Positions 38,097 through 39,229 of a DNA stretch of 58,233 nucleotides are shown piece by piece (positions within the stretch are counted from its first letter, which is position 1; every line of letters starts with the position of its first letter). The stretch lies in the NCBI GenBank assembly GCA_937858895.1, contig CALLZN010000362.1:1-58233 (forward strand). The letters are read 5' to 3'. A program made the translations under genes and the position numbers. Under the pieces are notes generated by a model that was not told where the DNA came from, did no database searches, and worked only from the letters and a program-made list of their open reading frames with translations. The DNA comes from an uncultured bacterium. Its GTDB lineage: Bacteria; Planctomycetota; UBA1135; GCA-002748355.

Positions 38097-38729
38097 TCAC
38101 GCACGCGGGTCCGCGCTCCCTCGGATTCGAAGCAAGACGTCATCGAGCTTCGCGCTCTGCGGCGCTTCGACCGCAACGAGGCGCTCCTTGGCCGTTACGA
38201 GCAGGCGCTGCGCTGCCCCTCGACTTGTTGATGGCGCATCCTCGATGTGCACGGCATCGAGCTCGGTGCGCGCGAGCGCCTCCAAGGCCTCGACCACGAC
38301 TCCGCCAACGAAGGCGCTGCACGGCGGCGACTCCCCACAGCTGACGTCGACGAAGACGATGCCCTCGTCCGCGAGTTCGATGTCCAGACTCACTTCACCG
38401 AAGCCGCAATCGCGGCACTGTCCCGCGAGGACCTGGCGAAACTGGACCAGGGCTAGGGCTTCGATCGGTGCTTCGTAGCAAGTCTCGACGACCGTGCAGA
38501 GCTCTTCGAAGAAGTTCTTTCCAAAGGCCCGCCCCATGTCGAAGACCGGGCGCGGTGAAGGCGAGGCGTCGGCGAGCTCAGCGAGCCACGCCTCGAAGAT
38601 GGCCCCCTCGAAAGACAAGAGGCGCAAGCCCGAGTCGGTGCGCAGGCAGCCGCTCACGTCGCGGCTCACGCGCTCGTCGAGCCTCGGCGGGTAAGCGCGG
38701 TGCAGGGGTCGCTTGCGCAGCTTCATCAT
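38097..38729 (-). CDS. V4R (4-vinyl reductase/BchJ-type, Bet3-like) domain protein
   Basis: LRLLSFEGAIFEAWLAEL...FDMGRAFGKNFFEEL...CGFGEVSLDIELADEGIVFVDVSCGESPPCSAFVGGVVVEALEALARTELDAVHIE fits the V4R pattern (R.l...G...G......GwG.....d......v.v......c.f..G...g.l.......v.E). The ATG at 38729 overlaps the globin stop (ATGA). Confidence 0.55.
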   Translation of the reverse strand: MMKLRKRPLHRAYPPRLDERVSRDVSGCLRTDSGLRLLSFEGAIFEAWLAELADASPSPRPVFDMGRAFGKNFFEELCTVVETCYEAPIEALALVQFRQVLAGQCRDCGFGEVSLDIELADEGIVFVDVSCGESPPCSAFVGGVVVEALEALARTELDAVHIEDAPSTSRGAAQRLLVTAKERLVAVEAPQSAKLDDVLLRIRGSADPRA

Positions 38730-39229
38730 CGTGCGACCCGCGCGTCTTCGAGTTGTGAGAAGTCACCGAGCACCATCACTACCTCGTCGAGGTAGGGCTT
38801 GGCGAAGTCGAAGGTGATGCCCGACAAGGCATGTTGCAGCTCGTCGCGCAGAGTCCCGTAGACATCACGCACGAAGGACGGCGTGAAACCGAGGGCGCGC
38901 AGCACCTGGCGGTGTGGGATCAAGAGACGGTCGCGCAAGTACTGGATATCGTCGATGAGCACGGCTTGGGCAACACAACGAAGCGTGAGCTGCAGGTCGC
39001 GGCTCGTGTGCTCGTAGCCGTGCTCGTGGAAGTCATCGAGCTGCGGGTAGTGCGAACGCACGGTGCGCATCGTCGCGTCCAAGACCTTGGTCTCGCAGCG
39101 TTCGATCTCCTGCTCGAGGGCGATGCGGCAGTGCACCGAACCCGCATACTCGAGGATGCGCTCGCGCTCGCTTTGCAGCAGGTAGCGTCGATCGCAACCG
39201 CGGACGATCTTCGAGATCTTGTCGTTCAT
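38726..39229 (-). CDS. Phycobiliprotein-like globin (Phycobilisome-protein family fold) lacking the canonical bilin-attachment Cys
   Basis: 167 aa, the phycobiliprotein size class. CDRRYLLQSERERILEYAGSVHCRIALEQEIERCETKVLDATMRTVRSHYPQL parallels ADAEARYLSPGELDRIKSFV..G.RR..IA..........I....N.LF.K.P... EHTSRDLQLTLRCVAQAVLIDDIQYLRDRLLIPHRQVLRALGFTPSFVRDVYGTLRD parallels ..[31 protein letters not shown].P......... (allophycocyanin/phycocyanin recalled from memory). The R-D of the CxRD motif is kept, but Cys is replaced (TSRD). Confidence 0.6.
   Translation of the reverse strand: MNDKISKIVRGCDRRYLLQSERERILEYAGSVHCRIALEQEIERCETKVLDATMRTVRSHYPQLDDFHEHGYEHTSRDLQLTLRCVAQAVLIDDIQYLRDRLLIPHRQVLRALGFTPSFVRDVYGTLRDELQHALSGITFDFAKPYLDEVVMVLGDFSQLEDARVAR

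Follow-up and report, generated by a model that had tools for sequence, protein, structure and literature searches.

In this work, we analyzed a stretch of 58,233 nucleotides (the window in what follows), which is contig CALLZN010000362.1, forward strand, of assembly GCA_937858895.1 from an uncultured bacterium placed by GTDB in the Planctomycetota (UBA1135; GCA-002748355), with attention to a small globin gene on its minus strand. The product of this gene very probably belongs to the lineage of the bilin-biosynthesis-associated globins (BBAGs), encoded here in a reduced version of the BBAG gene cluster, and we infer that it serves as a subunit, either binding bilin non-covalently or free of ligand, of a complex of V4R proteins linked to ParA-type ATPases. 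An earlier note on this DNA had pointed to the BBAGs as possible relatives; that pointer was correct, and the gene belongs to their V4R-type cluster (PMC10151467). The gene in question is:

38726..39229, minus strand: BBAG-type (phycobiliprotein-fold) globin of 167 amino acids, with T75-S76-R77-D78 at the CxRD site (PF00502, AlphaFold2, Foldseek)

Results

Fold and bilin-contact motif of the globin

The open reading frame (ORF) is intact; on the minus strand, it opens with ATG at 39229 and closes with TGA at 38728-38726. The earlier note had aligned its product by eye, along the whole length, with allophycocyanin and phycocyanin subunits, and this likeness was borne out. The search against the Pfam Phycobilisome family (PF00502), which the note had proposed as a check, gave a significant match (E 1.4e-13; 51.6 bits against a gathering cut-off of 22.2 bits) covering profile positions 10-152 of 155. 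A profile search of the PDB with the globin and four close homologues retrieved phycobiliprotein chains only (79 distinct sequences, best E 2.7e-4). Furthermore, the AlphaFold2 model, built on a 60-sequence alignment, is all-helical (pLDDT 95.7, pTM 0.89), and its top 50 Foldseek matches in the PDB were all phycobiliproteins, with no heme globin among them (TM score 0.73-0.82, root-mean-square deviation 2.5-4.6 A, 156-174 alignment columns). Structure prediction and superposition had likewise been suggested; the model superposes in full length, N-terminal helix pair included, on ApcA, CpcA and CpcB (Foldseek TM 0.78-0.82). Taken together, Pfam, the PDB profile search, the predicted structure and Foldseek indicate a phycobiliprotein-type globin fold, and neither of the two outcomes that the note had named as refuting its reading came about. 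Against the NCBIfam equivalog model for ApcA, the globin scored 19 bits, the cut-off being 270, and it scored lower still against the CpcA, ApcB and CpcB models.

The HMMER alignment sets T75-S76-R77-D78 of the globin opposite C82-L-R-D of phycocyanin beta. The Arg-Asp pair that contacts the bilin is thus kept, as R77-D78, in line with what the earlier note had read from the sequence. The same note held that the thioether-forming cysteine was replaced by serine. The cysteine is indeed absent, but since T75 lies opposite C82 its replacement is a threonine; Ser76 occupies the 'x' position of CxRD, and the change from CxRD to TSRD given in the title of the note was correct.

The globin family and its constraint

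When 1.84 billion representative proteins were searched exhaustively by profile, a family of 178 clusters emerged at E <= 1e-3, 79 of them at E <= 1e-10, nearly all of 150-170 amino acids; a word-indexed homologue search reached few relatives (4 and 24 matches). Residues were counted over 137 family representatives outside the target clade, by which we mean the window globin and its three close homologues. Position 75, the Cys82 equivalent, is glycine in 33 of these, alanine in 25, threonine in 21 and cysteine in 20, so that absence of the cysteine is the family norm and threonine is common there. The cysteine is missing as well from globins whose clusters do encode bilin-synthesis enzymes (KAFRD in locus L006, KGERD in locus L017; loci described below), and its loss here is not the notable departure for which the earlier note had taken it. 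Position 77 is arginine in 103 and position 78 aspartate in 131 of the 137 representatives, and both residues are invariant across the target clade. Most of the residues conserved in the family are kept, among them R15, Y16, R35, E46, Y61, P62, R77, D78, R84, D94, T116, P117 and P145. We also observed that the C-terminus (residues 155-167) reads DFSQLEDARVAR or DFxPPxxxRxGR in the target clade and is two residues longer, unlike that of most family members, in which a C-terminal SDFPEPAxxxV motif is conserved.

Phylogenetic placement, another of the proposed checks, succeeded in part. In a neighbour-joining tree, 79 family sequences stood apart from three phycobiliproteins with 99% bootstrap support, and the target clade, the window globin with three homologues of 72-85% identity, was recovered at 100%; the position of the clade inside the family could not be settled, bootstrap values there being below 20, and its nearest relative was for this reason judged by synteny instead. 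A scan of genomes of the close family found two metagenome-assembled genomes (MAGs) labelled 'Planctomycetota' and no others, and neither the globin nor the operon ORF n1 described below gave a match when metagenomes were scanned for each. Besides the window's own genome, the MAGs of the clade are JACKHW01 and JAGQQW01.

The globin is held by strong purifying selection. Its dN/dS is 0.08 at dS ~1.07 between the window and its orthologues in L009 and L001, and 0.05-0.16 between the window, L009 and L001 lineages and L004; the two closest lineages give 0.015, and the ORF is intact in all four. No other small protein of the operon is conserved as well as the globin, whose window and L009 copies are 85% identical; next come the ParA-type proteins P1 (73%) and P3 (64%) and the kinase-like protein K (68%), whereas its small neighbours X, A and Y reach 36%, 32% and 29%, respectively. 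In the nearest pair of contigs, the globin is 99% and Y 85% identical.

The operon in the window

The globin is the fourth gene of a minus-strand operon with the order K, X, A, globin, Y, Z, P3, P1, n1. The other members are, in this order:

40131..41195, minus strand: K, Hanks-kinase-like protein of 354 amino acids, predicted pseudokinase (Pfam Pkinase, 25.8 bits; kinase alignment)
39508..40134, minus strand: X, divergent V4R-A-like protein of 208 amino acids (BLASTP to the V4R-A proteins of L005, L008 and L006; hhalign)
39234..39521, minus strand: A, acidic protein of 95 amino acids, probably disordered (sequence reading; positional counterparts)
38097..38729, minus strand: Y, divergent V4R-B-like protein of 210 amino acids, ATGA-coupled to the globin (hhalign; AlphaFold2; Foldseek)
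37649..38092, minus strand: Z, small Trp-motif protein directly upstream of P3 and P1 (orthologues in L001, L004 and L009; motif scan)
34158..37652, minus strand: P3, protein of 1164 amino acids with three tandem ParA/MinD-like domains and weak C-terminal TPR signals (Pfam CbiA, E 9e-37, three stretches)
33376..34161, minus strand: P1, canonical ParA/MinD-type ATPase of 261 amino acids with Walker A KGGVGKT (Pfam AAA_31/CbiA)
32648..33379, minus strand: n1, protein of 243 amino acids, family unassigned, ATGA-coupled to P1, membership of the system uncertain (ORF and junction)

ATGA overlaps at the K/X, globin/Y, Z/P3, P3/P1 and P1/n1 junctions make this one translationally coupled operon. The globin had been described as joined by such overlaps on both sides; this holds for its downstream junction with Y, but upstream the acidic ORF A stops four bases before the globin start (TGAtgcgATG). 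A promoter and terminator scan found 0 promoter-like sites and 1 terminator-like site, against 4.7 expected.

Neither V4R-like neighbour matches the Pfam V4R family (PF02830) at E <= 10, so the downstream V4R protein announced in the earlier note was not confirmed at that level, although it does appear to be a divergent V4R-B homologue. Comparison of Y with the V4R-B proteins of related clusters by hhalign gave 98.6% probability (E 7e-16), and its BLASTP matches were V4R-B proteins plus one weaker match to the V4R-A protein of L013. The AlphaFold2 model of Y (pLDDT 80.5) is best matched in Foldseek by the V4R-containing sensory domains of PoxR, MopR and DmpR and by Bet3 (probability 1.0, TM ~0.5), which indicates a V4R/Bet3-type fold for the modelled protein. 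The counterpart of Y in Saltatorellus ferox has no precomputed Pfam match either, and its UniRef name is V4R domain protein. As for X, hhalign with the V4R-A proteins of the clusters gave 99.0% probability (E 2.6e-18) and BLASTP matched V4R-A proteins only. By alignment, X is without the N-terminal extension of V4R-A proteins and its cysteine triad is reduced to one cysteine in the window copy, and Y is without both conserved V4R-B cysteines.

The kinase-like protein K scored under the Pfam Pkinase cut-off of 31.7 bits. In the alignment, its HRD motif is changed to HPG (HGG in the L004 orthologue) and DFG to DWG, and K has no glycine-rich loop, whereas all catalytic motifs are present in the L005, L007 and L008 kinases. 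From its sequence, K is thus a predicted pseudokinase, and it sits at the front of the operon, a shifted position relative to canonical clusters. Neither A nor Z has a Pfam match. The protein A carries DFLDDLEE near its N-terminus, an internal FAGLPW and a C-terminal HKISW, and counterparts with the same Trp motifs stand at the same position in every related cluster.

Regarding the ATPases, all three domains of P3 have a variant Walker A motif, KGGTGR[TS], with the lysine changed to arginine. We considered this variant as a sign of a dead ATPase and dropped the idea: NCBIfam recognises a 'KGGVGR-motif variant AAA ATPase' family, to whose model P3 scores 85.3 bits (cut-off 90), and P3 is therefore not called inactive. 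It is 36% identical to a 1175-amino-acid protein of S. ferox. The canonical ParA P1 stays well conserved, sharing 72% identity with the ParA of the S. ferox cluster and 36-42% with those of L008, L011, L013 and L015. Across the loci, P3-type proteins always carry KGGTG[RN]T in place of the lysine form and P1-type proteins keep KGGVGKT.

The last ORF, n1, is confined to this clade among the loci examined (L001, 6325-7056; L009, 15825-16556; 59-60% identity). Its sequence, read by eye, runs collinear with motifs of bilin reductases (FP.P...P.F..E and, at the C-terminus, FG...L[FY]), and a hidden bilin reductase was considered but found no support: no BLAST, Pfam, NCBIfam or PDB match was found, and hhalign gave probabilities of 0.5-3%, its score against bilin reductases of the FDBR family (17.6) lying within 1.5 standard deviations of column-shuffled controls (14.0 +/- 2.4).

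Related loci and the extended cluster

The reduced gene order is repeated in L001/L010, L009 and L004, which come from the two 'Planctomycetota' MAGs and a read-archive contig, with the proviso that L001/L010 begin at the small acidic gene, their upstream side not being visible. Fuller clusters are found elsewhere. L006 reads FDBR, heme oxygenase, Fer2 (2Fe-2S ferredoxin), V4R, small protein, globin, V4R, its kinase being seen in the sister contig L007; L005 reads Fer2, V4R, small protein, globin, V4R, kinase, small protein; and L008, L011/L012 and L013/L014 read heme oxygenase, Fer2, V4R, small protein, globin, globin, V4R, kinase, small protein, ParA, ParA. L015/L016 start at the globins and have the same downstream half, except for the small gene between kinase and ParA, where no ORF is called. 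In L008, L011, L013 and L015, the ATPase paired with the canonical ParA is a single-domain KGGTG[RN]T protein. L017 lies in the complete genome of S. ferox Poly30 (CP036434), whose globin, 38.7% identical, is the closest relative outside the target clade. Its cluster comprises an FDBR gene on the divergent strand, heme oxygenase, Fer2, V4R-A, a 273-amino-acid small protein, globin and V4R-B, followed by a 595-amino-acid kinase, a 165-amino-acid small protein, the 1175-amino-acid ParA-like protein and ParA.

Thus, in at least five lineages the BBAG/V4R genes belong to a longer conserved set, with a Hanks kinase, two ParA-type ATPases and Trp-motif small proteins encoded after them. Two small, fast-evolving protein families accompany every BBAG/V4R cluster examined except L015. 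Counterparts compared from L001, L004, L005, L006, L008, L011, L013 and L017 show repeated hydrophobic-x-x-hydrophobic-x-Trp motifs in both families, which are otherwise barely alignable. A tryptophan falls within the last four residues in 15 of 17 small cluster proteins and is often followed by aspartate.

Compared with these clusters, the window operon appears, from gene content and order, to be a reduced descendant of the canonical BBAG cluster, and its context, which the earlier note had taken as simply different, is better described as a reduced version of that cluster. The locus has lost FDBR, heme oxygenase and Fer2: tblastn with queries for the three found none in the window, L001, L004 and L009. 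Also lost in the clade are the V4R cysteines (bar one in the window X), the N-terminal extension of V4R-A and the catalytic motifs of the kinase.

Other features of the window

A Pfam scan of the called ORFs over the 58-kb window found no linker, lyase, photosystem, heme oxygenase, FDBR, 2Fe-2S ferredoxin or B12-binding gene, which agrees with the statement of the earlier note that no phycobilisome linker, lyase or photosystem genes lie nearby. Elsewhere, the window carries housekeeping genes, among others those for PhoH, YbeY, PurA, a sigma factor, an inositol monophosphatase and a PBP4-type peptidase. Positions 1-15070 of the plus strand hold very large ORFs, one of 2797 amino acids that is open at the window start and then others of 1233 and 1193 amino acids, in which RHS repeats, DUF6531 and a CarboxypepD_reg domain are present. 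This region looks like an RHS/toxin-type locus, and a DUF1697 gene comes after it. Finally, a Fasciclin-domain ORF (24268-25152, minus strand; Pfam E 7e-36; GC content at third codon positions 0.87) lies inside a 970-amino-acid plus-strand ORF (24202-27111) that has no Pfam match and is probably non-coding over the Fasciclin stretch.

Discussion

BBAGs were described by Rockwell, Martin and Lagarias (2023) as phycobiliprotein paralogues of heterotrophic bacteria (PMC10151467), and the globin as first noted therefore belongs to a known kind. Their clusters encode a pre-PcyA bilin reductase together with an Fe-S protein, two V4R proteins of clades A and B and, in most cases, a heme oxygenase; the BBAGs tested bind bilins autocatalytically, without lyases, CXRD is present in just "some" of them, and their function is unknown (PMC10151467). 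Clusters of the pre-1 kind have been found in Planctomycetes among other phyla (PMC10151467; PMC13446030). The window globin resembles BBAGs in being a phycobiliprotein paralogue of ~160-170 amino acids in a non-photosynthetic bacterium, flanked by one V4R-A-type and one V4R-B-type protein, with the Arg-Asp pair kept and with its S. ferox relative (38.7% identity) lying in a cluster of the pre-1 kind with FDBR, heme oxygenase, Fe-S protein and V4R genes. It differs in that the locus is without heme oxygenase, FDBR and Fe-S protein, that the V4R partners fall under the Pfam threshold and have lost cysteines, that K74 and W105 are replaced, and that it has threonine where the characterised BBAG-1 and BBAG-3 have the cysteine of CXRD.

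Three further systems invite comparison. The slr0144-slr0152 operon of Synechocystis, which encodes the globin Slr0149, V4R proteins, ferredoxin 5, the TPR protein Slr0151 and the kinase SpkG, resembles the window operon in combining a globin gene with those of two V4R proteins and of a Hanks-type kinase. Slr0144-Slr0149 physically interact, as shown by co-fractionation and affinity purification-mass spectrometry (PMC9880817), and SpkG, the last gene of the operon, is required for phosphorylation of ferredoxin 5 (PMC11863333). In contrast, the window has no ferredoxin, its kinase is catalytically degenerate and its host is not photosynthetic; moreover, it has ParA-type ATPases and Trp-motif small proteins, which are unmentioned for slr0144-slr0152 in the literature searched. 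Given the role of SpkG in this homologous operon, we infer by analogy that the joint loss of ferredoxin and kinase activity in the clade is coherent. With ApcA, CpcA and CpcB, the globin shares the whole-length fold (TM ~0.8) and the Arg-Asp bilin-contact residues, but it is without the thioether cysteine, is ~16-24% identical, has a five-residue deletion before the motif, falls in a separate clade (99% bootstrap) and has no lyases, linkers or photosystems nearby. The third comparison is with the McdA/McdB system, which positions carboxysomes and in which McdB, a disordered adaptor that links cargo to the ParA-type McdA, needs an invariant C-terminal Trp (PMC11321042). A ParA-type ATPase adjoins small, fast-evolving, probably disordered proteins in the window too, with a near-C-terminal Trp that often has an acidic neighbour; nevertheless, the window is without microcompartment genes, has two ATPases, one of them with a KGGxGR variant P-loop, and its Trp motif is repeated internally. 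The likeness of the small proteins is one of functional resemblance, not of demonstrated homology.

Altogether, we consider the best explanation of the locus, and probably the right one, to be that a globin of BBAG lineage acts in a V4R complex, holds a bilin non-covalently and is coupled to the ParA pair. The globin would form a complex with its V4R-like neighbours X and Y, as the Slr0144-Slr0149 homologues do in Synechocystis. It may hold a linear tetrapyrrole non-covalently through R77 and D78, like many family members that have no cysteine, the bilin being supplied by a heme oxygenase encoded outside the locus or by uptake. The globin-V4R complex would in turn be a sensor or cargo of the ParA/MinD-type ATPase pair, and the small Trp-motif proteins might act as adaptors in the manner of McdB. 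The parts of this proposal are not equally secure. For the functional link between globin complex and ParA pair, suggested by the gene order conserved in at least five lineages and by the Trp motifs of the small proteins, the chances appear to us evenly balanced; and that the globin still binds a bilin, as its motif would allow, we hold to be possible, at slightly less than even chances.

Several observations weigh against this proposal. First, the ParA link rests on conserved gene order. Second, the locus offers no source of bilin within the 58-kb window. Third, X and Y evolve fast and have lost cysteines, so that a conserved complex is not assured. In addition, K74 beside the RD motif, which is lysine or arginine in 109 of the 137 family representatives, is histidine or asparagine in the target clade, and W105 in the helix after the motif, tryptophan in 111 of the 137, is proline or alanine, so that the pocket may be altered or lost. 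Besides, the tree resolves solely the split from the phycobiliproteins.

Some of these observations lend weight to the main rival, namely that the globin holds no tetrapyrrole and is purely structural, a ligand-free adaptor or 'pseudo-receptor' of the ParA-linked module beside a pseudokinase and cysteine-less V4R proteins. The disappearance of heme oxygenase, FDBR and Fer2 from the locus, the parallel degeneration of V4R cysteines and kinase catalytic residues, and the replacement in every clade member of K74 and W105, conserved in ~80% of the family, speak for such an adaptor. However, despite dS > 1 the clade has kept R77-D78 and most other positions conserved in the family without change, a heme oxygenase may lie elsewhere in the genome, and pre-1 clusters with distant heme oxygenase genes are documented (PMC10151467; PMC13446030); on balance we regard a ligand-free globin as rather unlikely. 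Less likely by far is a different cofactor, heme or another cyclic tetrapyrrole, with which the protein would sense gas or redox state, as other sensor globins do. The fold is globin-derived, and H33, H68 and H106 are conserved in the clade, H68 also being present in 58 of the 137 family representatives; yet the model fits phycobiliproteins, N-terminal helix pair included, with heme globins absent from its top 50 matches, all experimentally tested BBAGs bound bilins (PMC10151467), and the Asp that contacts the bilin hardly varies among family members (131 of 137). As to a true light-harvesting phycobiliprotein or a decaying, functionless remnant, the name of the Pfam family and the structural match to ApcA and CpcB over the full length could suggest the former and degeneration of the neighbouring genes the latter, but the results refute both: there is no Cys82 equivalent, the ApcA score is 19 bits where 270 are needed, the family stands apart from phycobiliproteins at 99% bootstrap, the Pfam scan of the window found no photosynthesis, linker or lyase genes, and across four lineages the ORF has stayed intact, at dN/dS 0.05-0.16.

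Beyond the proposal of a bilin-holding globin in a ParA-coupled V4R complex, a bolder one, which we put forward as a speculation with the odds well against it, is that the BBAG/V4R module is, in the first place, no pigment system but the cargo or sensory input of a dedicated positioning machine of ParA/MinD type. Equally speculative is the composition that such a machine would have: the canonical ParA, the KGGxGR-variant ParA and McdB-like Trp-motif adaptors. If this were true, the clade, with its globin and ATPases kept under strong constraint, would show the core function running without local bilin synthesis, and the function of BBAGs, as of the cyanobacterial slr0144-slr0149 proteins, could be approached for the first time.

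The literature searched describes no clade in which the BBAG is parted from bilin biosynthesis, ferredoxin and active kinase; nor does it describe an extended BBAG cluster with Hanks kinase, Trp-motif small proteins and two ParA-type ATPases, or a triple-ParA fusion of the kind common to the window and S. ferox. The clade amounts to a natural reduction experiment, in which pigment enzymes, ferredoxin, V4R cysteines and kinase activity are gone and the globin is held at dN/dS 0.08, and these losses beside a constrained globin show what the module can do without. The wider gene set suggests a role in spatial organisation or in signalling, not in light harvesting, and it offers a lead on the function of BBAGs and of the slr0144-slr0149 proteins, for which Saltatorellus ferox Poly30 is a cultured relative.

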